Shown: positions 9,738 to 50,100 of the stretch, piece by piece
How positions within the stretch are numbered: position 1 is the first letter of the stretch
Layout: every line of letters begins with the position of its first letter
Program-made: the position numbers and the translations under genes
Source: Antedon mediterranea
Lineage: Eukaryota; Animalia; Echinodermata
DNA length: 64,000 nt
Direction: 5' to 3'
Assembly (NCBI RefSeq): GCF_964355755.1
Contig: NC_092674.1
Span: 13,268,001 to 13,332,000 of the forward strand
The notes under the pieces: model-generated
What the model saw: the letters and a program-made list of their open reading frames with translations, nothing else
What the model was told of the DNA's origin: nothing
Databases searched by the model: none

Positions 9738-10304
9738 TTACCAACTACTTAAAATTACCGGTCGTAAGAAAGTGAACTTTTCGTAGTCCGATTGTGATGA
9801 AATTAAAACAGAATTGTTCAACAATATATTGTTGTTGTCAATTAATCATCGACGAAAACATGTCAGTAGAACACCCAGACTGCACATACGATTTCTACAT
9901 GGCTACGTTTGGCTCTCAAACAAGACCATATAGATTGCTACAGTCGCGTGCTCAAGTTAGTGTTTACCGCCTGACCAACCGACCAACTGAGTGAGATGTA
10001 GAGTCGCGTTGCGCATGACTGAAAATGTAACAGTTGCAGCGTTCTATAGAGGGCCTCGGTTAGAGACAATGAGCGTGTTTGTTTGATTGGCAGCAGGGCA
10101 GTAGTATAGGCAAGCGCGTTGGAAAATCGTTTGATGTCACCGTCGATGAATATCCTTCTATGCTCAGACTGTTTAAAACTTTATGCGACAGGTATTACAA
10201 ATTACTACAAAGGGTGACGATTATTAAAAAATGCGGCAGTACAAACGGTGTTTACAGATAATAATTATATGCGATGTGTAGGCCTACTTATTTTATGTCC
10301 TTGC

Positions 10305-18327: not shown

Positions 18328-18569
18328 CTGAAATATTACAAACATTATGTTATAGTATTTTTCACTTCACATCAAACTATCTAATATTGCAATAAAATCA
18401 ATTAGATGTGATCATGTGTATATACAAATTCAATTAAATAATTGAATTTATATAATAATTTAAAGTATGTGTAATCAGTGCTACTAAGCACCTTTGATGA
18501 TTACATTGTTTACTTAATTATGGCAACACAAACACAATATAAGTATATGAAAGTTACTTGGTGAAACTT

Positions 18570-18895: not shown

Positions 18896-19455
18896 ATAAA
18901 TTGCCATAAATAGATTGTTAAATGATACTGGTATGTACTTCTTGTATCTAATTTGTAAACAAAAAATATTATTTTAATTATAAATTTGTAATATTAAACC
19001 ATTGGACAGTGTGTGTGTGAAATATGTAAGGTACTTCCTCTATCTAATTTATAAAAAAAATAAATGTTTAATTAGACTTGTCTTTATTCATTAGGCATAA
19101 TGTGTATGTACCAGTTGTTCCAGAAACGAATGAAACACGATTATTAATAAAAGTATGAAAGCACACATAAAACGAACAATGCTTAATAGTTTTCCTAAAT
19201 ATTTAACTCAATCATCACCGTGATGAATTCGGGAAATTTGCGTCATAACATGAAATACACATAATACTCTATGATCTGAAAAAAAATGTTTATAGTGTGC
19301 TGAGTGGTGTCTATCAATTGTGTACATATAGTAACAATGTGGTCCAAGCATGAGCTCTTTTCTTTTCCTTCTAATTAATTTCATTTATTATAAGAAATTC
19401 CTTAAATTCGTGTGATAATCCCGCGATAATAATAAGTAACATCAGCAAAACTAAA

Positions 19456-20649: not shown

Positions 20650-22979
20650 TACGTACAATTTTCATAATGGAGAAATTATATCCAGGATATTAGTGTATTG
20701 GTAGTAGCACAAACATCATTTATTCTGGTGATTAACGTAACTAATCACAGTTTAACGTTGGGAAACATGTAGTGTTAATTTAATTATAGGCATAATATAA
20801 AAAGACAATTTGTATTAATCATTACCATTATTAATAACGATTACGGTATAAGTTTACCTTATCAATAAATGATTAGGAGAAGAAAAATAATAAACATGTC
20901 AGCCGATTGCAAAATTGAACCAAATCAAATGAAAACGGAATAAAAACAATGATCAATATTGCACTTGTTTAGTGAATTTTAGATGTTAAAACGGCCACAA
21001 TACGAGGTAGGCCTACTTTGTAGTGGCATTGAAGTAGAGTATGGCTTACGTGGTTTAACGTCTGAACTGTACTAACTTTAAATCAACTGGAGCTCATCAG
21101 TCATACATTTCGGATTTGACAAAGAATGTTTGGAAAATCAAAACTGATTACATTCCGATTTTCAGGATGTTTAAATATTGTCAAAAACGGTAGGAAGACC
21201 TAAACTTACTGTGATTTGTTTGTATTTAAATTATAATAGTATGAGGTTAATTTGGCCTAAAACAGTTTAGTGAATTGTGTTACTCACGCTCACGATCTCT
21301 TTTCGCGAATTCTAATCTCACATAAATAGGCAATGAAATCATTCATAAAAACATTCAAATGTCTTAAACTGAATTCTACAATGTAATGAATTAGTGACAC
21401 CTCAAATAATTATAAGCCTATCGGCCCGGTTGTGTATTATTTGCAGTTTTTTTACCAACAAATAGCGTGTTACATTAGTCCAGTCTATAAAGGGACTAGT
21501 GACATTATCGCACGTCGCATTACCTATAAACGGTCTAATTCTGCCTCTCGCTCACCCTCTAGTAAGTGTGGACGATGGATCTCGGAATGTTAAATAATAA
21601 CTCGAGTAAAACATTGGTTACCCTATTTATTGCAATGCTTGCTATTCGTTAAAATAAACATAATCTGTTTATCAGTGTCTTTTTTAGACTAAATAAGATG
21701 AGGAATATAACAATTTAAAGTACCATGTTTATTATTCGGGGCGTGGTGGGTGTTAGGGTGGCGGCGTTCATTCAAGGGAGGCGTTTGTTGGTAACATTTC
21801 ATAATTAATACATACCTCTAGATATGGACAAACCTGCCTTTAGATATAAAGAATATTAAGACTAAAAATAATTTTGTTAAAAATATAGCAGAACTTGTAT
21901 TATCAAGATACTGATTTATGGTGGCCCATCTTGTTTTTGTGTTGTTTTGTTTATGTCCTTTATTACTGTATGTTAATTTTCATTGATATGTATGCTTTTG
22001 CTATTTTAGTGTTAGTCTTTGAAGTAAATGTATTTGTTAGTATTGGGTAAGCCTTCAACTATCGAAAGCTATTTGGTTTGCTCCAATTTGCTTTTGCTAT
22101 TCGTGAATAAAGAGTAAAAACACAAAACCGTATTAAAAAATTATCAAGAAGTGATAAATAAACAAACAATTCTATCAAAATGCTTGGTAAATTGTAAATA
22201 TAGCAGTCAATGAATTCTTCTACAAATATAATTGTGTTTGTGTTAAAATACAATATTGCGTTGATAGTATTATGTGGCGGGGCGTTTATTAGAAGGTGGA
22301 GGTTGAATATTCCAAATATTTTTCATGTGGGAGAGGCGTTTATTCAAATAAATGCATTAGACCTAATTGGTATAATCAATACATTATTTAGTTTAAATCA
22401 AACACCAAATAATGACAATCATCAGTAGGCCATTTCGGCATAAGCAAGACGTTTTCAAACTGATTGCAACAACATGGGCCAAAGCATTCCGGGTCTCACG
22501 GCGATACACATGCAGGTAGGGGCACAATTGATTTGATGTGTTTTTTTGCAGTATATATTTTATTTTGCTTAAGTTCAATCTACACTATCAAACTTTATGT
22601 GAAAAAAAAGTGATGTACCTTTTTATGGACATGATGATGTCATATCACTACCATATTTGGGCACATTACATTTTTTTTTAAATTGATGTTATCTATATTT
22701 GTTATTCAACGTATAAAATGGAACTTCGAGTAATCGCTGACGGGATAGCGACATAACATGACACTTTGCTGGATTCAATGACAGTAGGTTGGATGTAGAC
22801 CACTTTGCAATACTACTACTACGACGTACTCTTGTAATGATAAAATATCACAATCTTAGCGAACACATCTTGAAAAGAACGTGTCATCCGCGTATTGTCA
22901 GGGTTAATTTAGTAAATGTAGTTGCAAAACATAAATATTTAATATTAATGACCCTTGTGGTATTAGTGAGTTGGTTTAT

Positions 22980-24815
22980 TTTAGGTATGCTATGTACGCC
23001 GGTACGCTCTTTAAATTTTAAAATTAAATATTTATTTAATCACACTGAATTATATTATAGTAACACTTATTATTAATGTTTGTAACACTTACATTTCTTG
23101 GAAGATCGAATTTAGCACCAGCCTTGAGCAAAATAGTGCAAACATCTGTGTGGCCGTTTTGTGCAGCCAAATATAAAGGTGACGCTCCATCCTGAAACAT
23201 TACAAACATGATGTTATAGTAGTTTTCACTCTAAACAAAGTATTAATATTGTACTGAAATAAATACGATGTTATCAATTAAAAATAACGTTATGGATTCA
23301 AATAATGCTACTTTGTTAAATTAAATAAAGATTATTAACCTCTGGTGTTTACTTTAAGATAATGTATTGTATACGTATACATTGGTCTTGTTTGTATAAT
23401 ATTGTTCATATAAGTACTGTACAATTGTAAACCAAATAAGTGTTTCTTTGCCTTTATCAGGTAGTGCTGACAAGTGTAAATTATGATAAGGTGGCGTTTG
23501 AACTGGCAGTTATGACAAAAAATATAATACTAGGATCCAAATTCTGTTCAACTAAATACTTACTATTGACTTTGTTTTAGTTACTGGGCTGCAATAGTTT
23601 TTTTTTTAGTTTTTTTTTTTTTAAAGATGTTTTACTAAATCAAATTGATATATCAATTCATATCCATTTAATGTATCATTTTCATAAATAAATAATGTAG
23701 CTCTGTATAGTACAATACAATACAGAAACAGAAAAGTCACCATTCAAAAAAAATCAGTCTCTAACATTCAGTGTTCTAAATGCAGATGTTAAAACTATTA
23801 CGGAATCTATTTGCACAAGGGGTGATGGACCGCTTCCTTGAACTTCAAAAATAGTACATGCGATAGGTTGGGTCTTGTTGAATCGAATGTGTTTTCTTAG
23901 TAAAGTATCTAATGATTCAAATTGAGATCTGCTTGAGATCTGCTCTGCTCGTGCCATGTTTATACCCTTACCCTTTATTGGTCGTGCCTTTTTTAAGATC
24001 ACTAGTGATTTATTTACAATCTTCAGAGTGGGTACCGTATTAATTTCATATTGTAGGTGAGTTTACGTTATAAAATGTCTTCATTGTTTTCAATTGTTTT
24101 CACCTGCTTTGATAGAGACAATACTGTTAATAATTGTTTATTAGTAAACACATAGTGTACACAAAACCAACCTAGTGTATTTTGTGCACATAATAGTGTG
24201 TAACATTTGTAATTTAGAGCGTTTATTTGACACGACAAAGCATGTGAACTCCTGAAAACGTACAGAATCATAATAATGTAGTACATATTGAATTTTGACG
24301 TAATGATTGTTGTTGTTTTTTTAGACCACACTAAGTGGTTGGTGTAACTTCACAATAATGATAATATAATGAAACATCATATGTTAGTCACCTTAATATG
24401 GTCATTTGCCATATACAGTTGAACATTCGTGAGTGGTCACCTCCCGTAGTTTCAAAAGCCCGTTTGTTCTTCATCAAATTAGTGGACCTCCTGTAAGCAG
24501 CCATCTCATGTGAGCGGCCGCGGAACTTTTTTTTTTCTCTTTTGTGAGGTTCACTCAACTTTATTTCATTTCAAAACATAAATAAAAAATTGTATTATGT
24601 TTGTATATTATTTTTTTTAATATATACTATTTTCATTCATAGACATAAAGTTTTCTCTTACATCTAAAAAAAACTCTGCAAGATATCATTTAATTTATAC
24701 ATTTACATTACATTTAAACTGAAAACAATATCAATAAATATGGAAAATCAAAATCAACTCAATAACCGGTTGCTTGTAGAGTATAGCATTTTCTATGCTC
24801 TTTTTTTTTTACTCT
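22980..24815. repeat. Recent exon+intron duplication, near-identical to ~39095-40977
   Basis: Colinear, a few percent divergent by eye; includes ankyrin exons 23093-23191 and 39194-39292. Confidence 0.92.
23093..23191 (-). CDS. Ankyrin-repeat exon (DGASPLYLAAQNGHTDVCTILLKAGAKFDLPRN)
   Basis: 99 nt, CAG acceptor, GTAAGT donor. Confidence 0.93.
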
Positions 24816-25775: not shown

Positions 25776-27794
25776 ATGCCTTCTCGCTGTGTTGCTGCGA
25801 ATTGTGGTCATGAAAATAACTTATTGTTTCGGTGGCCAAAGGACAGTTTCATCACCAGGCAATGGACAAGATTTGTACGTACAAAACGCGATATAAACCC
25901 ACAGCTCGATGATCAGTCCTTTGTTTTAAGCATTTTTCAGACGATTCATTTACAAACATGGGTCAATTCAAAGTTGGTCTAGCTACAAAGTAAGTATTTG
26001 TTAATTAGATGAATTTCCTTTTAATATTTTACCTTTAAAAAAAGCTGAATAAAATACGTTCGCCGTCGCTATTTTTAGGCCTGCTGGGCCAAGCCTAGCT
26101 TCTATCTAGGCGCGCGGGCAGCGATTTTTTTTTTCGTACATAAGTTGGGGACCCCCTCATGAAACGTCACAAAATAAACATGAATAATTCATCAGTTAAA
26201 TGTGTTGTTCCGTGTGCACCCAAGCGTATAGCAACAAGAAGCGATTACACAACTGCGATACGATACTTTCTACAGTAGGCCTAGGATTCTAAGTCAATTC
26301 ACGCGATTGCCTTCGCGCACTCTTCTTCAAAATGTGTCGAGTCGAGGCTAATCGACAGGTAGGCAAGACATTAAACTAAGTAGTAATTCATTGGACATAG
26401 CCCAAAGAAAGCTTAGACCCACAAGAATAAAGAATGTGTATAATTTGTGTAGGCCTACTGTATTTTTTTTAAGTCTGCTATTTATTATCAAACAATGCAC
26501 GTACTCAAAGGAACTTTAAAAATGCGCGTATATGAACACATGAGATGGGAAGATTAGACCCACGAGAATAAAAAATGTATTTTTGTGTAATGTTTATTGT
26601 TTAATTTTGCTGACTTATTACTCGGATTGTGTCATACCTATAACACACACACACACACAGCTCTACTACTAGAATAGACATATGTTTAGAGACTAATAAT
26701 TAGGCCTAGGCCTAATAGTATTAATAGAAACTATAATTTTAACACGTAATTCTTTATTAATACATTATATTATTAAAAACACTATCATAAACTAAAGGCT
26801 GATTATTTCGACAATCCACACAAAACGCCGCTATTCTTCTATGAAATCGCACGCCGCAACAACAGCGCGGAGATAGGCCTAGAATCGTACCGCACTTGTG
26901 TGTAATCACTTCTTGTTGCTATACGCTTGGGTGCACACGGAACAAGAACATTTAACTGATGAATTATTCATGTTTATTTTGTGACGTTTCATGAGGGGGT
27001 CCCCAACTTATGTACGAAAAAAAAAATCGCGCGCGGGCACAATATGGCGTAACATTAAAACTACATACATACAGTACAGTTGCTTCGCCTGATATGTGTA
27101 TAGTATTTACTTTATGTTGGTTTATCTTTAAATAAACATAAAATAATAAGTAATAGTAACTAGTTTTGCATGCACACACAAATATCTCAACTAGGCCTAG
27201 TTGTTATGTATTTGGCTTATTTATTATTAATAATAATGGGATAGGGCTAGGCTAGCCAGGCCTAATTAGTACTACTGAATGCTGTACAATCATGATGGAG
27301 GGTAGTCAATGCCTACACTGTTATGCTCAGTAGGAGAATGTCCTGTCGGTGTAAGTGGGAATAACAACTATATTATAATTATATTGCTTACGTTATTTTG
27401 CCCTATAATATTAACTGGACAACGGTTTCCTCACTACTTTTAGGCTTTTACTGAATGCCAAAACAGCGGTACCAACAATACATGTTGTGAGGGAGACATC
27501 CGACGATGGTGGTCAGCACAGAGGTTAGTGTAATAGATTCAATAAATAAAAGAAAAAATGTTTAGGTTTGTCTGATATTTATTTATTAATAGTATTAATA
27601 TTCAATCCAACAGGTCAGCATTTGTTAAAAGAGAAAAGGCGAGAGTGATCAAGGAGTTTATTACTGGAACAGAGGATGAGGAAGAGGATGAACAGGAGCT
27701 GGCCAGTGTATGCGATAAGCCTCTTATGGTGTCCAGAGGCACACAGACACAAAAGCAAAGAAATAATAAAATTGTTGAAATATTCACAATGTAA
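25776..27794 (+). pseudogene. THAP-domain gene, 3 exons (25776-25989, 27444-27523, 27614-27794), frameshifted
   Basis: MPSRCVAANC...FRWPKD...RQW, then after a frameshift CFKHFSDDSF...spliced to LLLNAKTAVPTI: C2CH and AVPTI motifs; GT-AG introns. Confidence 0.85.
26121..27030. mobile_element. MULE-type MITE in THAP intron 1
   Basis: ~145-bp TIRs starting GCGATTTTT; perfect 9-bp TSD GCGCGGGCA. Confidence 0.88.
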
Positions 27795-29013: not shown

Positions 29014-30279
29014 AACAAATATTCAGTAAGCTTGTTGTGATCGCCGCGGGGTGTGTTATAAGGCGCAAGATGCAGGTTAGTTCCTCCTCGCGATCGTCGG
29101 TGTTCTGGCTGTGACGTCACATACAAATGTCGAAAGGTAACATTTCGTGACCAAATAACGACACACATAATGAATTGCTTTTTTTTTCATATATATAACA
29201 ATTTATTATTGAAACTCAATTTAACATAGTATCTACATATATTATTCTTGATACTGATAATAGTAAATGTCGTATTTGTCGAAAGTGTAGCACTAGCACT
29301 TTAAATAATTTGTGTAAACAGCGTTTGCCAACTGAAAAGTTTGGACTAGTGGCGAAGGCTTTAACCTATTACGATGGAGCCCTCGGTTCGAGGTCTTTCA
29401 AGAACATGTTTTTTTTAAATAGTTGAGAGAGATTATTTAGAGGGTTAGGTTTAGTATATTTAGGAAGTAGATCAGCTATCTTGCAATTCTTTATAATAGA
29501 AAATAATTAAGGTAATGAATTATTCATGATTTCTGCCTTATCTGACGAGTAAAGAAAATTTCGCGCCCGGGTCTCTGGTTTCCAGGGGCGTTGTCATATT
29601 ATCGAGAACCATTCATATACACTCACTAGAAGGTGAGAGAGCAAAGCAAACGAATCTAGTTATTATAAATACGCTAACATTTACCTCATGGAAGACATTT
29701 AGCTCGTAGTATTATGAACGTGCGCTTATAGCGCATCGTGGTGTTAAGCCGAATATAAAAAAATATTAGTGAAACGCGTAATAACATTGCAGTAATAATA
29801 TTTAATTCATAAATTTAATGAAAATATAATCAAACAAAACAATTGTTCTGGAAGTTGTTTAAGGGTTATTTTAAAAAAAAACACATCGACTACGATTTAT
29901 TTTTAAACAATGTTAATATGTTTTGGTATCGGAATATGTCATATTTTCGATGAATTAAATACACTTATTTTGATAGCTAAAAAATTTATATTCAACTGTA
30001 ACATTAAAGATGACCCACTGTATTTTAACAAATTTAAAGTCATTGTTAAAAGAAATATTGAAATAGAAACAAATGTTGATTTGAAAATGATAATATGCAT
30101 ACAACCTAAATGAACAAATTAGGAATATAATCTACCTTTTAACTACCATGATATGTATAAATGTTCGTTTGATTGTGTTTTGTTTTGTATGTTGTTGTTG
30201 AGAAGCATTTTGTTTGTCTTGTTGCTACAGCTGGTGGCGCATTGTTTCTTTTTTTGGAATTGAAATAATAAAAAAAAAT

Positions 30280-30450
30280 ATTACAAAGTGCGACAGGAGT
30301 TATTACAAAGTGCGACAGGAGTTATTACAAAGTGTGTGAGCTCGATTACTACAAAGTGCAAAGGTTATCACAAAGTGTGACAGTTGTGTAACCATGTGCG
30401 CACGACAGTTATTACACAGTATTATGTGACGATTAAAGTGCGACAATACA
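30280..30450. repeat. Minisatellite, ~21-bp unit TTATTACAAAGTGCGACAGGAG
   Basis: About 7 degenerate tandem copies. Confidence 0.8.
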
Positions 30451-31421
30451 AAGCGGGTTTAAAGATAGTTATTATAAGTAGAGAACATGATGGTATAGTC
30501 AGTCGTGGTTATAACAATGGTTAACAATGGGGATAGTATAAGACAATAGAGTATATCATTTCACTAGAATTGTTATATAGATTTGTTATATATTAATATA
30601 CATTATAATATAAAATTAATAAATATTAAATAAAAATGATATGGTGATTTAGTTGCTTGTGAACAAATGGTTTACAATGGTTGAAGTCAATAGGTGTTAT
30701 GTTTCGGATTATAATACAATGGTTAACATAGGGTAAGGAAGTGAGACAATAATAGTTTTTGTAAGATTTGAATTAGTCATGGATTCAATAAAGATGCACC
30801 TGGTTAATTAAAACTAGTTAATTGAGGTTTTTGCTTGATGTATGCCGACATAATACAAAGACATAAGTTATTTGATCCGGATATTATAACAATGACTAAA
30901 ACAAAAAGATAAGAATGAATAGTTAAATAGCGTTTACAGGCAAAATATAGGCAAAATTGTAAGTATTAGTCAGATGTACAAATTACTGAAAAACAAAATA
31001 TTACTAGGAAGTATGAAACAATAGGTATTGTGTTTCGGGGTATATAACAATATATGTTAAAGGTGTCTTCCGACATATAATTAATACGGGGTATTTTATA
31101 ACAAAGATAAAAATAAAAAGAAGACTATAATGAAGTGATATAATAAGTATGTCTTGCTTGATCTTTGGCGACATAATCCAAAGACATAAGGCATTTTCTT
31201 CCGGATATTTAAGATTTGAAAATAAACGTTATTTAAGTATGTACAATTAAGTAAATAAAAGGTAATCTTCTGATGTCATGCATAAATTAATTTATGTTTA
31301 AATATCGGGGGGGGGGGGAGGGGGTATTATTTGAAATTCTATGTCAGTGTTTTCAATTACATCGAAGTCACTCAAACTCTAGTACTAGTTCCAAAGTATT
31401 ACCGTTACACGAGGTTAAAAG

Positions 31422-31922
31422 ATGAATTCTAACGTGTATACCGGTAATGAACAAAAATTTGAAAACAGCAGTCTTAGCGGTAACGAGGAATTTTTGTTAG
31501 AAATTCTTGATGACAACGATGAAATGGTAAGTTGAATCAATTTGTACAAGAAAAAAAAAGAAATTTACGTATATTATTTTCAAAATGTTATTAAGATTTA
31601 ATTTGTTCTGTCTGTTACATGGGGTCTTGTTATTTAATTTTCAGATTCGATGTATAGAAGAGTTAATTGATGATCAGAACGAATTATGTAATGAAATGGT
31701 AAGTTACTATTTCTATAAATTTATTTTTAAAATGGTAATAATATATGATATTTAGTCTAATATAAACAACATTTTGTATTACAGTACGGTATTTTGATTG
31801 AAAGTAGTAATAACGAAAGGGAAGAAACACTTCAATTAGAGAATGACATGGCAGTTGCAGAAATTTGCCGCATTGCAAGAAACAAAAGAGGTAATTTAGA
31901 CGAAGAAGAAAATGATTTATGA
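31422..31922 (+). CDS. Spliced 98-aa acidic protein with an IxCxE motif (exons 31422-31526, 31645-31698, 31785-31922)
   Basis: Two GTAAGT...CAG phase-0 introns join an open frame from ATG to TGA; missed by the ORF track. Confidence 0.7.
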
Positions 31923-32109
31923 GTATGATTGCACTTCGACCAATGTTCCGACAGGAAATACAACAATGACAATTGGCTGAAACAAATTTAGTAAATGCCG
32001 AATGTAATCATTTGACTGTATATAACTCTCGATTATTTTGTAATCTTTACCTCATTCTACAACGCTACAGAGCTCGACAAGACAGACCAAAAACCAACAA
32101 CTAGTTACT

Positions 32110-32913
32110 ATGGTTTCCGTGATTGAAATCATTGATCTTACTATGGACTCTCATGTCGAAGAAGATGTTACATATATATAAGCAGTGATTCAGAATTTGA
32201 AGACGAAGACATACTAGCTATGACTGGTGCCTATTTTACAGCAGAGGAGGAGGAAGAGATGAGGGAAGAGATGGGGGATATGACGTGTTTAATGGTGATT
32301 CAACCCCCACCTCCAATGAACGTTGATTTCAATAATGTATCTAATACTGAAGAAGACGAACATTATAGATCGAGAATAATTTCTGAAGAGGAGAGGATTG
32401 TATACGACGACACGTCATCGGTAGTTGACTACCACCTATTTCTGGCAAGAAAAGCCGATATAGAAGATGAGGTAGAAGATGGGGTGTTTGCGGAAGAGTA
32501 CCTGAACCCTGTGCTGGGGATGGAAATTTAGAAAGAAACTACCGAACAATGATGAGGTGTTTACGGAAGAGTACTTGAACCCTGTGCTGGAGGCGGAAAT
32601 TAAGAAAGAAACTACCGAACTTAAGTACAAAGAAATAATGAGAACAATTGAGAAGGTTTTCAAAGAAGAATTTATATTCATTCTGAATGACATGGTTGAA
32701 CGTTATAACTTTCACGGCTCAAGATATGAGCAACTTCTAACAATTTTTCGACCAATTCTGGCATTGAAACTTGTGGACAATAGCGCTATCCATTTTGAAT
32801 GGGCGCTAAACTACTTTCATTTACGTTGTATCAATGTTGATGCGTTCGATAAAGCCATAAAGTTGATTACAAATGATTCAGAACTGTTTAATAAGATTCT
32901 TAACCAGTTGTAA
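32110..32913 (+). pseudogene. Left-arm copy of the acidic SIM-motif gene plus downstream helical ORF
   Basis: Mirror of 36327-37126; +2 insertion near 32170 and AAG>TAG at 32529-31; downstream part 32557-32913 open. Confidence 0.8.
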
Positions 32914-33159
32914 TTTATATAAATTTAAATATTATCATAACACTTTTAATTAATGTTATATATTTTTATAATTCTTATTTCTTTTCGGTAAATTTATTAT
33001 TATTATGGTTGTAAAATATATTGAAATAGAATGTGTGTTAAAATAAAGGTTGTGTGTTTTTTTTAAGGCAACAACGAAAATGAAATTTGATCTTTGCGTG
33101 GTATTTAAGTATTTGATTTATTTTTTTAATTTTAATTTGGTTGAATGAGGGTAATGAGT

Positions 33160-33390
33160 ATGGATGAGTACATAAGAAAAGTATATTACGATCTTAAGCA
33201 TCCTGATAGTTTAGGTGGTGTGGACCGACTTTATCAAAATGTAAAAGACGATTTAAATATTACCAAGAGACAAGTTCAAGACTGACTGTGCAAGCAAGAT
33301 ACATTATACATTACACAAATCCATTCAACGTAAATTCAAACGAAACTGGGTACTTGTAAGTGCTATTGATGAACAATGGGAACTGGATTG
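33160..33390 (+). pseudogene. Maverick/Polinton integrase N-terminal fragment
   Basis: MDEYIRKVYYDLKHPDSLGGVDRLYQNVK...VQD*LCKQDT/YTLHKSIQRKFKRNWVLVSAIDEQWELD; truncated at about the first catalytic Asp. Confidence 0.88.
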
Positions 33391-34869
33391 GGAAAAATAA
33401 CGTGTTTGCAAAATCAAAGGTTTGACTTTAAAGGAAGTCAATTTTGAAATAGTTGGTAGCATGGTACGGGTACTAATCCTAACAAAATAACCCGTAAACC
33501 AAAATCTAGCTTAATATTTATTTTATATTATAAATTTGTAAAAGTAGTTACCATATTTTAATTTATGGTAAATTTATTTTTCGAATTAATTTAATTTGTT
33601 TTCTTTTCTGTTGAATTTTTATTATTATTATGTTTGTAAAGTGTATTGCAATAGATTTGTTTAATGAAATAAATTAATTATGTTTTGACTTAATTTATGT
33701 CAGTGTAAATTTGTAAAAGTAGTTTCCCTATTTTAATTCATGATAAATTTATTTCTTTTCTGTTAAAGTTTTATTATTATTATTATGTTTTGTAAAGTGT
33801 ATTACAATAGAATGTGTATTTCAATAAATTTTGTTTTTAACATCAACAACAAAAATGAAATTTTATCTTTGCGTGTTGTTTAATTCGTGTATGATGTTTT
33901 TCTAATTTATTTATAAAAAAAACAAAAATTGACTTTAAATTTCAAAAAGTCAAAGGAATTCAATTTTGAAATAGTTAGTAGCATGGTACAAGGAATCGAC
34001 AAGGAAAAAATAACAACAATTAATTTAATTTAATTCTTCTTTTCTGTGGAATTATTATTATTATTATTATTATTATTATGTTTGTGAAGTGTATTGCAAT
34101 AGATTTGTTTAATGAAATAAGTTAATTATGTTTTGACTTAATTTATGTCAGTGTAAATTTTGTAAAAGTAGTTTTCCTATTTTAATTCATGGTAAATTTA
34201 TTTCTTGACTTAATTTAATTAGTTATCTTTTCTGCTGTTATATATATGTTTTTTAAGGTGTAGTGCAATAGAATGTGTATTGAAATAAATTTTGTTTTTA
34301 ACAGCAACAATAAAAATGAAATTTGATCTTTGCGTGTTATTTAATTCCTGTATGATGTTTTTCTAATTTATTTCTACAAAAAGAAAACACATTTTTGAAT
34401 TTGTTAAATGTAATTGCAAACACGCATAATAAATGATTGTGATTAAAAATATTCTGTTTACTTCTTTTATTTTAAACAGTAGGTCTATAATGTAAAGTTA
34501 TATTTTATAATATAATAAGTAATATTACAAAAATAAACATACACAATGTATAATGCATATATTTATTACATTTAAATACAATTTTTTTATTTCAAAATGA
34601 ATTTCATATTCTACGTGTTTTTCAATTTTAAATCTTTTAAGAAAGACACAATACGTACTGCTAAAAAAAAAACACGATATGTAACGACGGTTTCAATAAA
34701 AAGTCATATTATAAATGTATTTTTACCAAATTTATAAAGTAAAGGGTTATTATTGAGAAATATACATTTTAGATAAATGATAACACATCTAAAATTAATT
34801 AGAGAGATCAATACAATATGGTGTTCATAATAATTTGTTTTGATGACTAGAGGAAACATCTGAAGACAT

Positions 34870-35415
34870 TCAACAAAAAACAAGCGTTAACACCATACCA
34901 GTCACTAAGAATGCTACTACTCTGAAAAAAACATCTCCCTTCCTGCACACAAAAATTAAAATAATTAGTAAACGAAACACGCGCATTTTAAATAAAATGA
35001 ATAATTTAAGAATATTTGTTAAAATACCCACGAACAAAAAAAAAAGAAACATACTAACCGATTCATCGTCATTACGAAGTTCAAATAACGAAAACTTTTC
35101 CTTGAAAAATCCACAAGAGACACGTTTTACATTTTCTAACTGCATTTCAGTGTCACATTGTTTCGCAACACATGTACATACAACGAGTCCTGTCACAAGT
35201 CTGCCGAAATTTATTTTTTTATCGCTCATCATTTGTTCTAATACATAATACAGCGCTTCCGAAGAAATATCTTTACACAATTCTAACACATTAAAATTGT
35301 TTTCCAACTCTTTACAAGCACGAATAGTACTCTGGAGGATGGGTGAATCCAAAACAATTAACCCCGTCAATTTATATTAAATGTATGCTAAAACTACTTC
35401 CTCTAAATCAACCAT
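34870..35415 (-). pseudogene. Bcl-2-family homologue in the palindrome spacer, with one in-frame TAA at codon 13
   Basis: BH4-like EEVVLAYI*YKL, BH3-like ILQSTIRACKELENNF, BH1-like YVLEQMMSDKKINFGRLVTGL, hydrophobic C-terminal tail; intronless. Confidence 0.8.
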
Positions 35416-35847
35416 AACGCTCGACAAAACAAATGATAATGGATGTAATTACCATGAAAGTTACAACTTAAAACATTTTAAAGAAATAAATTTATCATGA
35501 ATTAAAATAGGGAAACTACTTTTACAAATTTACACTGACATAAATTAAGTCAAAACATAATTAATTTATTTCATTAAACAAATCTATTGCAATACACTTT
35601 ACAAACATAATAATAATAAAAATTCAACAGAAAAGAAAACAAATTAAATTAATTCGAAAAATAAATTTACCATAAATTAAAATAGGGTAACTACTTTTAC
35701 AAATTTATAATATAAAATAAATATTAAGCGAGATTTTGGTTTACGGGTTATTTTGTTAGGATTAGTACCCGTACCATGCTACCAACTATTTCAAAATTGA
35801 CTTCCTTTAAAGTCAAACCTTTGATTTTGCAAACACGTTATTTTTCC

Positions 35848-36078
35848 CAATCCAGTTCCCATTGTTCATCAATAGCACTTACAAGTACCCAGTTTCGTTT
35901 GAATTTACGTTGAATGGATTTGTGTAATGTATAATGTATCTTACTTGCACAGTCAGTCTTGAACTTGTCTCTTGGTAATATTTAAATCGTCTTTTACATT
36001 TTGATAAAGTCGGTCCACACCACCTAAACTATCAGGATGCTTAAGATCGTAATATACTTTTCTTATGTACTCATCCAT
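35848..36078 (-). pseudogene. Right-arm copy of the integrase fragment
   Basis: Reverse complement of 33160-33390 with the same TGA and frameshift, plus an extra CAA>TAA. Confidence 0.88.
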
Positions 36079-36685
36079 ACTCATTACCCTCATTCAACCA
36101 AATTAAAATTAAAAAAATAAATCAAATACTTAAATACCACGCAAAGATCAAATTTCATTTTCGTTGTTGCCTTAAAAAAACACACAACCTTTATTTTAAC
36201 ACACATTCTATTTCAATATATTTTACAACCATAATAATAATAAATTTACCGAAAAGAAATAAGAATTATAAAAATATATAACATTAATTAAAAGTGTTAT
36301 GATAATATTTAAATTTATATAAATTACAACTGGTTAAGAATCTTATTAAACAGTTCTGAATCATTTGTAATCAACTTTATGGCTTTATCGAACGCATCAA
36401 CATTGATACAACGTAAATGAAAGTAGTTTAGCGCCCATTCAAAATGGATAGCGCTATTGTCCACAAGTTTCAATGCCAGAATTGGTCGAAAAAAATGTTA
36501 GAAGTTGCTCATATCTTGAGCCGTGAAAGTTATAACGTTCAACCATGTCATTCAGAATGAATATAAATTCTTCTATGAAAACCTTCTCAATTGTTCTCAT
36601 TATTTCTTTGTACTTAAGTTCGGTAGTTTCTTTCTTAATTTCAGCCTCCAGCACAGGGTTCAGGTACTCTTCCGTAAACACCTCA

Positions 36686-37126
36686 TCATTGTTCGGTAGT
36701 TTCTTTCTTAATTTCCGCCTCCAGCACAGGGTTCAGGTACTCTTCCGCAAACACCCCATCTTCTACCTCATCTTCTACATCGGCTTTTCTTGCCAGAAAT
36801 AGGTGGTAGTCAACTACCGATGACGTGTCGTCGTATACAATCCTCTCCTCTTCAGAAATTATTCTCGATCTATAATGTTCGTCTTCTTCAGTATTAGATA
36901 CATTATTGAAATCAACGTTCATTGGAGGTGGGGGTTGAATCGCCATTAAACACGTCATATCCCCCATCTCTTCCCTCATCTCTTCCTCCTCCTCTGCTGT
37001 AAAATAGGCACCAGTCATAGCTAGTATGTCTTCGTCTTCAAATTCTGAATCACTGCTTATATATATAACATCTTCTTCGACATCAGAGTCCATAGTAAGA
37101 TCAATGATTTCAATCACGGAAACCAT
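36686..37126 (-). CDS. Acidic 146-aa protein with two N-terminal SUMO-interacting-like motifs (right-arm copy, open)
   Basis: VIEIIDLTMDSD and VIYISSDSE; TATA-like sequence upstream; continues in another frame into a repeat (EEYLNPVLEAEIKKETTE x2) and a helical region to ~36327. Confidence 0.7.
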   Translation of the reverse strand: MVSVIEIIDLTMDSDVEEDVIYISSDSEFEDEDILAMTGAYFTAEEEEEMREEMGDMTCLMAIQPPPPMNVDFNNVSNTEEDEHYRSRIISEEERIVYDDTSSVVDYHLFLARKADVEDEVEDGVFAEEYLNPVLEAEIKKETTEQ

Positions 37127-37314
37127 AGTAACTAGTTGTGGGTTTTTGGTCTGTCTTGTCGAGCTCTGTAGCGTTGTAGAATGAGGTAAAGATTACAAAA
37201 TAATCGAGAGTTATATACAGTCAAAGGATTACATTCTGCATTTACTAAATTTGTTTCAGCCAATTGTCATTGTTGTATTTCCTGTCGGAACATTGGTCGA
37301 AGTGCAATCATACT

Positions 37315-37816
37315 CATAAATCATTTTCTTCTTCGTCTAAATTACCTCTTTTGTTTCTTGCAATGCGACAAATTTCTGCAACTGCCATGTCATTCTCTAA
37401 TTGAAGTGTTTCTTCCCTTTCGTTATTACTACTTTCAATCAAAATACCGTACTGTAACACAAAATGTTGTTTATATTAGACTAAATATCATATATTATTA
37501 CCATTTTAAAAATAAATTTATAGAAATAGTAACTTACCATTTCATTACATAATTCGTTCTGATCATCAATTAACTCTTCTATACATCGAATCTGAAAATT
37601 AAGTAACAAGACCCCATGTAACAGACAGAACAAATTAAATCTTAATAACATTTTGAAAATAATATACGTACATTTCTTTTTTTTTCTTGTACAAATTGAT
37701 TCAACTTACCATTTCATCGTTGTCATCAAGAATTTCTAACAAAAATTCCTCGTTACCGCTAAGACTGCTCTGTTTTCAAATTCTTGTTCATTACCGGTAT
37801 GCACGTTAGAATTCAT
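37315..37816 (-). pseudogene. Right-arm copy of the spliced IxCxE gene
   Basis: Mirror of 31422-31922 with a +2 (AG) insertion in exon 1 near 37770. Confidence 0.65.
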
Positions 37817-39193
37817 CTTTTAACCTCGTGTAACGGTAATACTTTGGAACTAGTACTAGAGTTTGAGTGACTTCGATGTAATTGAAAACACTGACATAGA
37901 ATTTCAAATAATACCCCCTCCCCCCCCCCCACCCCGATATTTAAACATAAATTAATTTATGCAGGACATCAGAAGATTACCTTTTATTTACTTAATTGTA
38001 CATACTTAAATAACCTTTATTTTCAAATCCTAAATATCCGGAAGAAAATGCCTTATGTCTTTGGATTATGTCGCCAAAGATCAAGCAAGACATACTTATT
38101 ATATCACTTCATTATAGTCTTCTTTTTATTTTTATCTTTGTTATAAAATACCCCGTATTAATTATATGTCGGAAGACACCTTTAACATATATTGTTATAT
38201 ACCCCGAAACACAATACCTATTGTTTCATACTTCCTAGTAATTTGTTTTTCAGTAATTTGTACATCTGACTAATACTTACAATTTTGCCTATATTTTGCC
38301 TGTAAACGCTATTTAACTATTCATTCTTATCTTTTTGTTTTAGTCATTGTTATAATATCCGGATCAAATAACTTATGTCTTTGTATTATGTCGGCATACA
38401 TCAAGCAAAAACCTCAATTAACTAGTTTTAATTAACCAGGTGCATCTTTATTGAATCCATGACTAATTCAAATCTTACAAAAACTATTATTGTCTCACTT
38501 CCTTACCCTATGTTAACCATTGTATTATAATCCGAAACATAACACCTATTGACTTCAACCATTGTAAACAATTTGTTCACAAGCAACTAAATCACCATAT
38601 CATTTTTATTTAATATTTATTAATTTTATATTATAATGTATATTAATATATAACAAATCTATATAACAATTCTAGTGAAATGATATACTCTATTGTCTTA
38701 TACTATCCCCATTGTTAACCATTGTTATAACCACGACTGACTATACCATCATGTTCTCTACTATTATATATGAGATTTTTTTTTTTTTCAAGACAGTTTA
38801 TCAGGAACCGATCCATATTTTGTTCTTTCTTGAGTAAAGTTTCGGGATCATTAATTTGACAAATAATAGTTCTTTGGTGAGATCTTGCTTGGAAGTTTCC
38901 AGGTCTCGGGGTTTAAATGACCGCGACTTTTAAACTATCATTGGTTGATCTAACTGCCCAATGTCAAGATTAACCTTGACGAAGTAGCGGTGTTCCGAAC
39001 CATGTTAGGGGTACAACCGTGCAGTTCTCGACAATACAGTAATCCTCGATACAAAATATGAAATGATATATGACCCGCAATGTGAGTTGGTTCATTTAGG
39101 TATGCTATGTACGCCGGTATGCTCTTTAAATTTTAAAATTAAATCACATTGAATTATATAGTAACACTTATTATTAATGTTTGTAACACTTAC

Positions 39194-39292
39194 ATTGCTT
39201 CGAAGATTCAATTTAGCACCAGCCTTGAGCAAAACAGTGCAAACATCTGTGTGGCCGTTTTGTGCAGCCAGATATAAAGGTGACGCTCCATC
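39194..39292 (-). CDS. Ankyrin-repeat exon (DGASPLYLAAQNGHTDVCTVLLKAGAKLNLRSN)
   Basis: 99 nt, CAG acceptor, GTAAGT donor. Confidence 0.93.
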
Positions 39293-39696
39293 CTGAAACA
39301 TTACAAACATGATGTTATAGTAGTTTTCACTCTAAACAAATTATTAATATTGTACTGAAATCAATACGATGTTATCAATTAAAAATAACGTTATGGATTC
39401 AAATAATGCTACTTTGTTAAATTAAATAAAGATTATTAACCTCTGGTGTTTACTTTAAGATAATAGATTGTATACGTATACATTTGTTTTGCTTGTATAA
39501 TATTGTTCATATAAGTACTGTACAAATGTAAACCATATAAGTGTTTCTTTGCCTTTATCAAGTAGTGCTGACGAGTGTAAATTATGATAAGGTGGCGTTA
39601 GAACTGGCAGTTATGACAAAAAATATTATACTAGGATTCAAATTCTGTTCAACTAAATACTTACTATTGACTTTGTTTTACTTACTGGGCTGGAAT

Positions 39697-39734
<38 letters not shown>

Positions 39735-40977
39735 TGTTTTACTAAATCAAATTGATATATCGATTCATATCCATTTAATGTATCATTTTCATAAAATAAA
39801 TAATGTAGCTCTGTACAGCACAATACAATACAGAAACAGAAAAGTCACCATTGAAAAAAATCATTCTCTAACATTCAGTTTTCTAAATGCAGATGTTAAA
39901 ACTATTACGGAATCTATTTGCACAAGGGGTGATGGACCGCTTCCTTGAATTTCAAAAATAGTACATGCGATAGGTTGGGTCTTGTAAAATCGAATGTGTT
40001 TTTTTAGTAAAGTATCTAATGATTCAAATTGAGATCTGCTTGAGGTCTGCTCTGCTCGTTTGAGTTCAAACGTGTCATTTTGTGCCATGTTTTTCCCTTA
40101 CCATTTATTGGTCGTGCCATTTTTAAGATCACTAGTGATTTATTTACAATCTTCAGAGTGGGTACCGTATTAATTTCATATTGTAGGTGAGTTTACGTTA
40201 TAAAATGTCTTAATTGTTTTCAATTGTTTTCACCTGCTTTGATAGAGACAATACTGTTAATAATTGTTTATTAGTAAACACATAGTGTACACAAAACCCA
40301 CCTAGTGTATTTGTGCACATAATAGTGTGTAACATTTGTAATTTAGAGCGTTTAATTGACACGATAACGCATGTGAACTCCTGAAAACGTACAGAATCAT
40401 AATAATGTAGTACATATTGAATTTTGACGTAATGATTGTTGTTGTTTTTTTAGACCACACTAAGTGGTTGGTGTAACTTCACAATAATGATATAATGAAA
40501 CATCATATGTTAGTCACCTTAATAATGGTCATTTGCCATATACGATGATTTAAAAATTCAGAGTTTTAATATTATAGTATTACAGTTGAACATTCGTGAG
40601 TGGTCACCTCCCGTAGTTTCAAAAGCCCGTTTGTTCTTCATCCAATTAGTGGACCTCCTGTAAGCAGCCATCTCATGTGAGCGGCCGCGGAAATTTTTTT
40701 TTTCTCTTTTTTGAGGTTCACTCAACTTTATTTCATTTCAAAACATAAATAAACAATTTTCCTATGTTTGTATATTATTTTTTTTAATATATACTATTTT
40801 CATTCATAGACATAAAGTTTTCTCTTACATCTAAAAAAAACTCTGCAAGATATCAGTTATACATTTACATTACATTTAAACTGAAAACAATATCAATAAA
40901 TATGGAAAATCAAAAGCAACTCAATAACCGGTTGCTTGTAGAGTATAGCATTTTCTATGCTCTTTTTTTTTTACTCT

Positions 40978-44157: not shown

Positions 44158-47100
44158 CACCCGATTCTGCTACTGTCCACAGGTGCTATCTTTAAAACTA
44201 TAGCAAGTTATACACGTTGTTGTCTGCTATAAATGCTGTACTTTTAACACACGGTACACTGTCTGTAGCACAGTGTGTGTTGACAATTTACAATGATGTA
44301 CAACCATAGGCAGGTTTTCGTACTGCCATGCAAGAATGGATAGGTGTTTTCCGCCGCTTTTAGGCCTTCTAGTCAGTTATTGTTATTATTATACGAATTA
44401 CGTAATTGGTCTAGTAGCTCATCTACCTTTTTAGCAGGGCATAATGAATATTGTAGCTAGGCTAGGGCTACTAGTCTAGCGGAAAATCAACCAATTATTT
44501 GGTTGGATACGAGTTTAGGGTAGGAAGTTAAGTACGAGTTGGCATGGGTACGAGACGACCAGGGGTGAATCGACCAGAGTACACCCGGCTGCCCTACTAG
44601 AGCATAGGCTACAGGCCTGCAGGAATGGGAAATCTGTCTTAGCTATAGGCATAGGCCTACATTGGGACGCCCAAAAAAGCCATCATATGAGCATAAAAAG
44701 GCCTCGTAGAGCCAGACATGTTAACATACACTACACAGTACTAGTACGTCTACCATTTATTATAGTTCCATGGTACTACGGATCACTACTATCTAGGTCT
44801 AGTAGTAGTAGTAGGCTAGCTAGGGTAGGGTTCCAGTAATTTTGGTCGCGTTTTTTCAGGAGGGCATGCGAGAGGTGAGGTAGGTTAGCCCAGCTAGGCT
44901 AAACTAACATGTAAGTAGTATTCTACCATGGGATGGGAACGAGTCGGCATGGGGGTACGGGTTGATCTTTATCCGTATTCTATGATGCTGGTCAACCCGT
45001 AAAGTACCCATGTCAACTCGTACCAAACTTGGCTAACTCGTACCCAAATAATTGGTCAACTCGTACCAATAGCTTTATAGCTTTATTGATAGCTGGGTTC
45101 AAATCTAGTTTGGGACGTTTTTTTCTCATTCTAAAACAGATTTCCTTATAATAATAAAATAATATCGACCTATGAATTTAACTGTAATATTGTATTGTAT
45201 GCATAATATTAGTAGTAAAAGTAATTCCCATTGAATTTATTATTATAATATATTTTACGGTAACCCCTTAATTATACTATAGTATAACTTCCTTGTTATA
45301 TTTTACAATATTTTCTTCATAATTCAACAATTTTTTTTCACAGCTAATTATCAAACTGAATCATCACACACCAAATCTCATGAAATCTCTAGTGTATTTC
45401 TCCAAGCTAATCCAGCTACATGGTATTGCCTTGAGGCTAAACTACACTGTATACTGGGCACTACCATCATTCCTGGCCCGTCAACCTGGACCACATTATG
45501 GTCCAACACAGTCGTGTAGTACTGATTCCAAATAGTGAATTACATCCTGTGGTCAAGGATTTATTTGCACTTATGCTTATTTCCTCCAACATACCGTAGA
45601 GTACGTAGGGCTTTTAATTTGCTTTTATACCTGTTAATTAAAAAATCGTTTATGCCTATTGTTGCATAAAGATCAAATTTAGACTGTAAATACTGGGATG
45701 ATCACCCTACATTTTCTTTTTCATTTAACAATTTTATATTTCACAGCCAGAAAAAAGCATACAGAGTTTTTTTATTCATAACTGTTGAATTGCATCCCAA
45801 TACATGGTACCTATTGGTATTATATCTATAATAATAAAGTACTCTCTTATAAATAGATCTTTCCAAACCACTCCAACTACATAATCTAATAATAGTACTA
45901 TTAGCATACTACTGTACACTTTGTAGACAAGAAATAAGTTGTATCCACCTAGATGACTTATGTTAGTATTGTACAGTCGATCGTCCTCTCACTAGTCTGG
46001 TCAACATAATCTACGCCTAGATTATTACAGTAATTAAAGTACATTATTACAGAGATTTTTTTTTTCAGAAATCAAAGTTATGTGTATAGAAAGCAGTACT
46101 CGTATTAAAAACTAAGCAGGTTGTACTCTTGAACGCCAGCTGGCAGGAATATTTTGAATATTTGTTGTTGTTGAAATGATGGAATCCTAACTTCAATTTC
46201 CACGAACTGGAGACGAAGACATATTACGACCCTTTTATTTAAATTTATTTGGATAGACATCCATGTAAATTCATTAAAGGCTATATGATTGTTTTATATT
46301 TTAATATGTGATAGTAGAAAATCATTGTGTATAATGAGGACTATGAATCTGATATTTACTTGCATTCTCATCTTTTTAAAATTTTATTTATAATGCTGGT
46401 AATGAATTTACTATTGAAAAAGTCATGTGTCCACTTATCTCAAATTGTGGCACACCTCTAACCTTGGTAGAACTGACTGTGTTCTATATGAGTACATTTA
46501 ATTTGCCATTATAGTAGTGTTTCCACCATACTTGAACCTGGTAATTGAATACATTTCATCGGGGTAAAATTATCACCTTTAACATAAAGTATCCTCCTGA
46601 AACATGTATTTGTACTGTACTTCATCTACTATTCATTTAATTACTTAATACTAATTTGGGTGATTTATGTCTAACTTCAGGAATGATCTGAGGCTAGAAG
46701 AACGAATTTCTGCACATATAGTTTATATAAAAAATAAACCAATGTTTTCCTAAAAAGTTAACCCCTAGGTTGATAACTAACAAAGAAATTATTAAAATTG
46801 TGTTCTCACAATATATGTGTACTGTATCTACATATGCATACTGCTGTACTTGTTTTTAACCGCATAATGGCATTTAAAAAAAAGAATGTTTTATAATTAT
46901 TATGTTATTTCCAAATATTAAAGGTCTGAAACAGAAACTAAATGTTACCAAACTATGTTTTTGAAAATCTCTATGATATAATATAATAATATGAACATAA
47001 TATTAAATTATATTGACTATTTTTGATAATCGTCATGTCCTTATAAATTCATTTATATTTCTTTTGTGTAATATAGTTCATATATTATGTATTAAATAAA

Positions 47101-50100
47101 TTGGTAAGGCCCTATACTGTTTATATTTAAGGAAAGTTTATTATACACTATTATTTTATGCCTACCAATATTAGTATTAATTGTTTATGTAACTATTTTG
47201 TCTAATTGCATTGATTTTTTGTATAGGCCAATGGAATTAATGTTTTCTCAAATCAAATTAGCCTATTATAATGCCATATTTAGACACATAGATCATTGAT
47301 TTCTGATATTCTGTACTTGTGTATGCATTACTAAAATAGTAGATATTTTATTTCATTTATAATGTATGTATAAACTTTTATTCAGTTTTTTTTTACATTT
47401 TTAAGTTTAAAAATTATTAGAATACCTATCTACGTTTCTGTTATTGTTACTATTATAATATTTTTTGAGGCAGATTGATTTCATTAAAAACATTTTAAAC
47501 AATTAATTTGATTTATACTGTACTATGTTAGTTCAGGAGATGAAGTGTGTGTTGGTAGAATCTGGTGTGTTGGAGGTTGGTGATGTGAGGTGTACTTTTG
47601 TCACTTTAAGACCTAAATTAGATGTTTTCTGAAGAAAAGTGGATAGGATTTCAAACAACTCCAAGAAGATTCACACAAAAATAATTACTTCCCAATAAAA
47701 TAGTATGTAACAGTGTATATTACACTACATTGAATAAACTCGAGCGGAAAAATAACACACATAAAAATCATTAATTTCCTTGTCGAAAAGCGCCCTCTCT
47801 AGTTTTCTATTAATTTATTAATAATTATTATTAATTAATAAGTAATATAAACTTATTTTTAACATTAATGCTGGAAGCTGATTCTACTCCTAACAAGGTG
47901 TCATACCTCCAAATTTCGTCAACGTATTCAAAGCACTTCAATAAATATCACATTGAACATTAAAAATTAGGGTTATGGATAGAATTTTGCTTAAAAACAT
48001 ATACAAAAAACATCGATAAAAAATACTTTTCGAATTTAAAAACATTTGAAACTTCTTTTATATGTTCAATATAGGTTGCTCTATTCACAGAAACAAAATT
48101 TCATTCATGAACGTTTTTTGTTGGTTGTTTTTTTCAAAATCGTTATTAGGTTTAAAAAATGCATTGGAATTGTATGGTCTTTCATAAGTGTACATTTTGT
48201 AAAAACTTAAATTTAAAAAAACAGTAATATGGCTCGATAGTTTTTTTTTGCAATATGGATGGAGCAACCTATATTGAACATTTATACCAAGTATCAAATG
48301 TTTTTGAATACGAAAACTATTTTTTATCGATGTTTTTTGTATATGTTTTAAGCAAAATTCTATCCAAAACCCTAATTTGTAATGTTCAATGTGATATTTA
48401 TTGAAGTGCTTTGAATACGTTGATGAAATTTGGAGGTATGAAACTTTGTTTGGAGTCGAATCAGCTTCAAGCATCAAATGTTAAAAATATGTTTATATTA
48501 CTCATTAATTAATAATAATTATTAATAAATTAATAGAAAACTAGAGAGGGCGCTTTTCGACAAGGAAATGAATGTTTTTTTATGTGTGTTATTTTTCTGC
48601 TCGAATTCATTCAATGTACTTTAATATACACTATTACATACTATTTTATTGGGAAGCCTATTCGCTTCAGAAATCAATGAATTATGTGTCTAAATATGGC
48701 ATTATTAGGCTAATTTGCTTTGAGAAAAACATTAATGCCATTGGCCTATACAAAAAATCAATGCAATTAGACAAAATAGTTACATAAACAATTAATACTA
48801 ATATTGGTAGGCATAAAATAATAGTGTATATAAACTTTCCTTAAATATAAACAGTATAGGGCCTTACCGATTTATTTAATACATAATATATGAACTATAT
48901 TACACAAAAGAAATATAAATGAATTTATATTATAAGGACATGATGATTATCAATATAATTTAATATTATGTTCATATTATTATATTATATCATAGATATT
49001 TTCAAAAACATAGTTTAGTAACATTTAGTTTCTGTTTCAGACCTTTAATATTTGGAAATAACCTACAGTATAATAATTATAAAACATTCTTGTTTTCAAT
49101 GTCATTATGCGGTTAAAAACAAGTACAGCAGGATGCATATGTAGATACAGTACACCTATATATTGTGAGAACATAATTTCTATAATTTCTTTGTTAGTTA
49201 TCAACCTAGGGGTTAAATTATTAGGAAAACATTAGTTTATTTTTTATATGTGTACAGAAATTCGTTCTTCTAGCCTCAGATCATTCCTGAAGTTAGACAT
49301 AAATCACATAAAATAGTATTAAGTAATGGATATTAGATGAAGTACAGTACAAATACATGTTTCAGGAGGATACTTTATGTTAAAGGTGATAATTATTTTA
49401 AATGTTACCCCAATGAAATGTATTCAATTACCAGGTTGAAGTAGTATGATGGAAACACTACTATATGTACTCATGTACGTACTCTGTATGTTAGAGGAAA
49501 TAAGCATAAGAGAAAATAAAGCCTTGACCACAGGATGGAATCAGTAGTACACGACTGTACTTATGTGTGGGCTAGGAATGATGGTAGTGCCAGTATACAG
49601 TTTAATTTAGCAATACCATGTAGCTGCATTAGCTTGCAGAAATACAGTAGAATGATTTCATGAGACTTGGTGTGTGATGATTCAGTATGATAATTTGTGC
49701 TGTGAAAAAAAAAATTGCTGAATTATGAAGAAAATATTGTAAAATATAACAAGGAAGTTATACTATAGTTACTATAATTAAGGGGTAACCGTAAAATATA
49801 TAATAATAATAATAAATGCTATGGGAATTACTAATATTATGTAAACAATACAATATTAAGTTAAATTCATAGGCCGATATTATTTTATTATTATAAGGAA
49901 ATCTGTTTTTGAATGAGAAAAAGCCGTCCCAACCCAGATTTGAACCCAGTATCAATAAAGCTATAAACAGAATAGACCGGAATTTAGCGTAGACCTACTC
50001 GAGGCCTAGTAAGATTAGCTAGAAGAATACAGGTCAACCCGTACCAATTCCAACTCGTAACCAAATTTTGGTTTATTCGTACCCAAAATGTTGGCTCACT

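Follow-up and report, generated by a model that had tools for sequence, protein, structure and literature searches.

We describe here an 8.3-kb insertion of Maverick/Polinton type in a 64,000-nucleotide stretch of Antedon mediterranea DNA (contig NC_092674.1, positions 13,268,001 to 13,332,000; 'the window', to whose first letter all positions below refer), built around two gene-bearing inverted arms and enclosed by a perfect target-site duplication (TSD). One of the arms was templated from the other after the lineage had gained lesions of its own; this homogenisation came late in the lineage, with about 0.4% of drift per arm since. We favour, at a probability of about 0.5, the explanation that this copy is what an inner deletion has left of a longer palindromic satellite, which an intact helper Maverick would both replicate and integrate.

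An 8.3-kb insertion with long inverted arms

Parts of the window are contained in nine sequencing runs from three studies, four of which were compared with it, in every case as contigs: X1 (organism A) and X6, X8 and X9 (one sample of organism B), with X2-X5 and X7 outside the comparison.

Judged from its sequence context the insertion is real, because it has a TSD, an empty paralogous site and a contig that spans the left host/element junction. Copies of ATTATA stand directly outside the AGTAG..CTACT ends on both sides of an element of 8286 nt (AGTAGAGA..TCTCTACT), and the chance equality of two random hexamers in the window is 6e-4. The left host flank aligns to 10167-10269 (73 of 108 columns), ending exactly on a single ATTATA, the right flank aligns in the same order to 10290-10562 (219 of 278 columns), and an X9 contig (30356-30525, depth 38) crosses the left junction with 0 differences. 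Six bp is the TSD length of Mavericks/Polintons, and the terminal motif AGTAGA..TCTACT has five of the six letters of the (AGT)2 type, the reference motifs being those given for vertebrates in PMC8097293.

Global alignment of the left arm with the reverse complement of the right spans 3289 columns, of which 27 are substitutions and 13 are gaps (98.7% identity by blastn), the differences being mainly substitutions, about half of them transitions, rather than homopolymer slips. The terminal 735 nt hold just one substitution (post hoc p 0.017), and the spread of differences along the arms is not significantly uneven (Kolmogorov-Smirnov p 0.21). The 3.3-kb inverted arms and duplicated ATTATA reported in a first-pass annotation of the window are thus confirmed by alignment, by the ends and by the empty paralogous site; and, as that annotation also held, arms of 3282 and 3283 nt exceed the usual terminal inverted repeats (TIRs) of Mavericks, expected at about 50-1500 bp and quoted as 46-1447 bp in PMC8097293 and 100-1500 bp in PMC10748475.

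The inversion itself is well supported by sequence logic but not confirmed by reads, the data compared being contigs. The earlier annotation had placed junctions at 33758 and at 35480, of which the latter stands, whereas 33758 probably marks no junction, since the window-like sequence of family contigs extends to either side of it (33479-33602, with an X6 depth of 449, plus a joint leaving from 33896), and 35479/35480 is therefore the sole new junction. Family contigs leave the window at 35474-35478 for other sequence, one of them, from X9, exiting at 35478 into sequence found nowhere in the window; the X9 bin arithmetic fits a single contig of depth 191 ending at that position, with zero cover at 35479-35507, and none of the 16 pieces listed, out of 99, crosses 35479/35480. 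The AT-rich unit within which this junction falls differs in number between family contigs.

One arm was templated from the other

That one arm was copied from the other follows from derived lesions that both arms carry and dominant contigs lack, namely a 73-bp tandem duplication, which is skipped at full depth in X1, X6 and X9 (the dominant contigs of both samples), a frameshift in an integrase remnant, and small indels near the terminus. A 211-bp segment (30918-31128), also present in both arms, is skipped by the dominant X1, X6 and X9 contigs and carried by a minority contig. The contig comparison lists 40 of 186 substitution rows, 28 of them inside the left arm; in 15 of the latter the two arms are alike against contigs of both samples, in six the arms differ and the contigs agree with the right arm, and seven are sample-specific or mixed. 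Within 32600-33600 the shared changes (at least 15) outnumber the arm-to-arm changes (five), and it is on this account that we place the homogenisation late. Contigs collapse minority alleles, so that a state called 'shared by both arms' is one that the majority lacks and need not be unique to this copy, and states common to both arms may also occur in a minority subfamily.

The first-pass annotation had taken the stop, frameshift and truncation of the integrase, all three of which do occur in both arms, as proof of copying. The copying holds and the frameshift is informative, but the stop and the truncation are present in the dominant family contigs; they predate the spread of the family, and so provide no evidence for copy-back in this copy. 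To the frameshift we add the 73-bp duplication and the 15 substitutions.

A multicopy family with flat depth

In X9 the depth over the element is about 140-700, against 38 for the contig at the left host junction, which suggests a multicopy family of between several and about twenty members, subject to the tool's own caveat that contig depth is no copy number; structural variants among the contigs, together with depth, likewise indicate several copies. One contig, about 12% diverged, is without the integrase stop and runs on beyond the truncation, and is a candidate for the helper lineage. X1 (organism A) also contains this defective family over 30645-35016 of the window, again with that integrase truncation and with the region of a Bcl-2-like gene; the family may therefore predate a species split, or the run labels may differ. 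A 17-nt pattern taken from the terminus returned 49 metagenome loci, none of which aligns to the element except over a simple repeat in one of the 49, and these we regard as chance matches.

X6 is the run with the least apparent AT bias; in it, the sites 190-520 bp inside the terminus have per-site depths of 811-946, those of the arm genes about 760-1360 (contig-overlap sites left out) and those of the Bcl-2 region about 610-1370. The profile is flat, showing neither the doubling at the terminus expected for TIRs of a few hundred bp nor a halving at the Bcl-2-like gene. A family in which every copy is built like this one, with the arms twice and Bcl-2 once, is ruled out by a Bcl-2 depth equal to that of the arms; what flat depth does fit is either a family whose TIRs are shorter than about 190 bp or a longer palindrome in which each arm contains Bcl-2.

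Genes of a Maverick derivative without replication functions

Each arm carries three genes, namely a three-exon mini-gene, an acidic gene and an integrase stub. Three was also the number given by the first-pass annotation, but the count is made up differently here, with a spliced mini-gene, one acidic gene split in two, and the stub. The mini-gene rests on predicted splicing (phase-0 introns, GTAAGT donors, exons translated one by one); its exons are open in the left arm, and exon 1 is frameshifted in the right. Within exon 2 (31645-31698) there is an IxCxE stretch that resembles, as an inexact match, the LxCxE motif described for adintovirus 'Oncoid' genes (PMC8502044).

The acidic gene is unbroken in family contigs, which are without the 73-bp duplication. 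Its C-terminal part has zero relatives among 1.84 billion representatives, and its N-terminal part zero homologues in a word search and a sub-threshold atlas match (0.83); at its start lie what we take to be two SUMO-interaction-like motifs.

Of the integrase there remains a broken 76-residue stub, with an in-frame stop, the frameshift near 33304 and truncation near 33389, which is 77-82% identical to residues 1-76 of the protein P0001. P0001 itself matches Pfam rve (E 1.3e-11), and we assume from its N-terminus that it is Maverick-type rather than of another rve class; a search with it found no locus in viral contigs. A 24-residue match to integrase residues 113-136 on the opposite strand (33403-33474) was not significant (E 0.17) and was not used. 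No polymerase family was matched by the six element frames scanned, the longest stop-to-stop frame being 168 codons, and for packaging ATPase, protease, and major and minor capsid genes the element has no frame of fitting length and no matches. Maverick ends, TSD and gene remnants, with replication genes missing, support its classification as a non-autonomous Maverick/Polinton derivative.

The spacer between the arms holds a further gene, overlooked in the first-pass annotation, whose predicted protein appears to behave like a diverged member of the Bcl-2 family. It matches Pfam PF00452 with E 2.4e-5 (25.2 bits, under the curated cut-off of 31.4) and scores 0.93 in the atlas with 213 shared features, the ten best named matches all falling in the Bcl-2 family or clan. 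Its best sequence match in the PDB is fowlpox FPV039 (E 0.055), and a homologue search came back empty at E<=0.01. The 44 Foldseek rows listed all belong to the Bcl-2 family, and none reaches E<=0.001; we count these as a hint only, because the single-sequence fold behind them has low confidence (predicted local distance difference test, pLDDT, 58). Atlas and fold rows point to the Bcl-2 family and to no other. The gene is cut short in this copy by a premature stop at codon 13, where high-depth contigs differ. Bcl2 homologues have been reported among the accessory genes of adintoviruses (PMC8502044).

Genomic setting and other features

Coordinates of the features of the element are collected in Table 1.

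Table 1. Features of the element and of its insertion site (window positions)
Feature	Position	Strand	Remarks
Left TSD copy, ATTATA	30471..30476	+	from sequence and junction contig
Left arm	30477..33758	+	3282 nt; begins AGTAGAGA
Three-exon acidic mini-gene (predicted)	31422..31922	+	exons 31422-31526, 31645-31698, 31785-31922
Acidic orphan gene	32110..32913	+	two open reading frames, divided by the tandem duplication
73-bp tandem duplication	32478..32620		mirror copy 36618-36760
Dispersed direct repeats	32918..34382	+	AT-rich unit of ~150 nt, about four copies
rve integrase N-terminal stub	33145..33389	+	mirror 35849-36093
Spacer	33759..35479		1721 nt; joined without a break to the left arm in the family
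Bcl-2-like gene	34870..35415	-	hydrophobic C-terminal stretch
Junction	35479..35480		only one unseen in the family; inside a copy of the AT-rich unit
Right arm, inverted copy of left	35480..38762	-	3283 nt; ends TCTCTACT
Right TSD copy, ATTATA	38763..38768	+	from sequence
Paralogous empty site, single ATTATA	10264..10269	+	in an older host duplication; from flank alignment

The DNA of the window is of animal type, AT-rich and free of N, and contains ankyrin-repeat exons. The target site adjoins a very high-copy repeat (30279-30460) with a 22-bp tandem unit, at which contig depth is several-fold that of the element. The nearest host exon (39194-39292, minus strand) encodes one ankyrin repeat (Pfam Ank, E 9.2e-9), and the element probably sits in the intron that follows it. 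This exon is one of five paralogous, exon-like stretches on the minus strand (10684-10794, 18249-18344, 23098-23208, 39194-39292 and 58542-58640), the one tested being an ankyrin repeat, and tandem duplication has enlarged the host gene; one such duplicate, at 93-97%, is the pair 22966-24815 / 39082-40977.

At 44158-51071 lies another foldback-like element, older and 6.9 kb long, whose ends read CACCC..GGGTG. Nested inverted matches of 82-90% make up 78% of its length; it shows no clear TSD, and its one open reading frame has no Pfam match at E<=0.1. A 910-bp element at 26121-27030 has 150-bp inverted ends at 95% identity. A 470-bp repeat is present in three copies, in both orientations, at 88-92% identity (2219-2690, 9270-9740 and 19452-19923), and fragmented retroelement reading frames with RVT_1, DUF1759 and DUF5641, a set that we take to be BEL/Pao-type, lie at 60199-63683.

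A model for the origin of the palindrome

We propose the following model for how an element of this kind might arise and spread. The arms of the family would run from the terminus, through the Bcl-2-like gene, to a centre lying further in; a displaced single strand could then fold back, such that one arm templates the other, much as in the panhandle-repair model of protein-primed viruses, with an intact helper Maverick supplying the polymerase for copying and the integrase for insertion. Long palindromes are known to suffer lopsided central deletions, and one such deletion, at a later stage, would have removed the second Bcl-2 copy from the present element and created its 35479/35480 junction. 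We also speculate that the accessory genes (Bcl-2-like and acidic) may help host cells to tolerate the element; in this copy, each of the accessory genes carries damage in one arm or both.

The first-pass annotation had instead read the palindrome as a one-off defective genome, integrated as a unit. Neither part is supported as put forward: flat depth hints that long arms may be the norm of the family, and a perfect TSD would be kept just as well by conversion in place, so that the TSD cannot separate these routes. A longer palindrome is preferred to short family TIRs since the latter would have to measure less than about 190 bp, set against a vertebrate mean of 402 +/- 276 bp as stated in PMC8097293.

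Several points nevertheless weigh against the longer palindrome. The same flat profile would come from a linear family whose TIRs measure less than about 190 bp, and contig depth, from which that profile is built, does not count copies; contigs also collapse minority alleles, and X6, X8 and X9 come from a single sample, possibly the source of the assembly itself. No other copy has been seen whole, the centre of the palindrome is unobserved (16 letters are known beyond 35478), and neither a helper polymerase nor a helper capsid gene was seen. Finally, the X9 contig across the left junction runs 49 nt into the element unbroken, whereas a 31-mer graph would be expected to branch after 30 nt if the right end were identical; the right end in X9 may differ, or its path may have been dropped.

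This unbroken contig fits a sample in which the right end was not homogenised, as would be the case had the rearrangement occurred in place: an ordinary non-autonomous copy inserted and aged, and repair of a stalled fork or break via the right TIR then overwrote the right part with the left 3.3 kb, with no mobile palindrome at any stage. The TSD survives in such a scheme, fork stalling near inverted repeats has been reported to promote recombination in yeast (PMC8748988), and a second multi-kb foldback element, albeit of another type, lies 5 kb away. An old right TIR would, however, show about 3.8% divergence, and at that rate the 0 substitutions in the first 192 nt have a probability of 7e-4, so that either the copying nearly reached the end or conversion came afterwards; short family TIRs are required here too, and we consider this route unlikely. 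The same holds, in our estimation, for a one-off copy-back before integration, whereby a linear non-autonomous element with short TIRs replicates outside the chromosome, its polymerase jumps at 35479 to the left part as its new template and follows this out to the left terminus, and a helper integrase inserts the product. Such an event would leave what is found, namely one new junction inside a repeated AT-rich unit, derived lesions common to both arms, terminal 735 nt that are nearly identical, and a junction at 35480 not carried by family contigs; phi29, moreover, is described as building up template-switch subgenomes (PMC4974454). It needs both a rare event and a successful integration, however, and flat depth again demands TIRs of less than about 190 bp, against the vertebrate mean of PMC8097293.

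An assembly artefact, by which a spurious inverted repeat was put together from two haplotypes or from a fold-back read, seems to us highly improbable. The arms diverge by 0.8%, which is in the range of heterozygosity, and the contigs listed leave 35479/35480 uncrossed, with the gap in X9 cover beginning at that very point; contigs do, however, drop low-depth links between high-depth paths. The right arm, moreover, leads across a direct TSD into the right host flank that belongs there, in the same order as in the paralogue; the arms differ mostly by substitutions and not by homopolymer slips; and the window lacks any N.

Returning to the longer palindromic family, we raise, tentatively and with more doubt than confidence, a wider proposal: that there may be a class of helper-dependent Maverick satellites, multi-kb palindromes that would rebuild one arm by fold-back in each round of spread, shed the viral machinery and retain genes that manipulate the host (Bcl-2-like, spliced acidic, SUMO-motif), and which would amount to germline-captured, self-perpetuating snap-back genomes, preserving a record of the way in which Mavericks replicate. 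To our knowledge, the replication of Mavericks has never been observed; palindromic satellites with datable arm homogenisation would make the fold-back step testable from genomes alone, as the arms of each copy should, if the proposal is true, share private mutations of one arm of the mother copy. A family that loses its integrase yet keeps a Bcl-2-like gene also bears on whether accessory genes aid the persistence of an element. Had the arms arisen in place, by comparison, they would be an ordinary repair scar in a dead element.

Comparison with known systems

With Mavericks/Polintons (adintoviruses), as portrayed in PMC8097293, PMC10748475 and PMC8502044, the element shares its 6-bp TSD, AGT-type ends, the N-terminus of an rve integrase and a Bcl-2-like accessory gene. 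It departs from them in having no polymerase, ATPase, protease or capsid genes and an integrase that is dead across the family, in its gene-bearing 3.3-kb arms in place of TIRs of 46-1447 bp, and in a length of 8.3 kb as opposed to the 13-25 kb quoted; the arms are more than twice as long as the longest TIR given in PMC8097293 (1447 bp) or PMC10748475 (1500 bp). Vertebrate ends are reported as (AGT)2//(ACT)2 or (AG)3//(CT)3 (PMC8097293), whereas the end here, AGTAGA, is a perfect copy of neither (AGT)2 nor (AG)3.

The layout was found undescribed in the literature on palindromic or non-autonomous Mavericks and on Bcl-2 cargo, covered mostly at the level of titles and opening lines of abstracts, the supplements of PMC8502044, Kapitonov and Jurka 2006 and Repbase being outside that scope; long-armed non-autonomous Polintons may already be on record in the last two. 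The zebrafish element Polinton-1N1_DR, compared by its name alone as it appears in PMC9341505, is likewise Polinton-derived and helper-dependent. A survey in corals is described as limiting its TIR search to 2500 bp with a long loop (PMC11131425), and would have missed an arrangement such as this.

Foldback-type DNA transposons, as outlined for Tetris and for long-TIR Mutator-like elements (MULEs), similarly consist for the most part of long inverted arms; the element here differs in its Maverick-type ends, TSD and integrase, and in arms that carry genes in place of short subrepeats. The panhandle repair of adenovirus and PRD1 ends, on which our fold-back step is patterned, is itself a model, for which direct evidence of panhandles is still described as lacking in a 2025 paper (PMC11886824). 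Similar in plan are the snap-back and template-switch subgenomes reported for adeno-associated virus (PMC8235507) and phi29 (PMC4974454), in which one terminus and its adjacent genes are likewise duplicated in inverted orientation and a helper is needed; those, however, are free molecules, whereas the element described here is chromosomal, flanked by a TSD, aged, and a member of a multicopy family.

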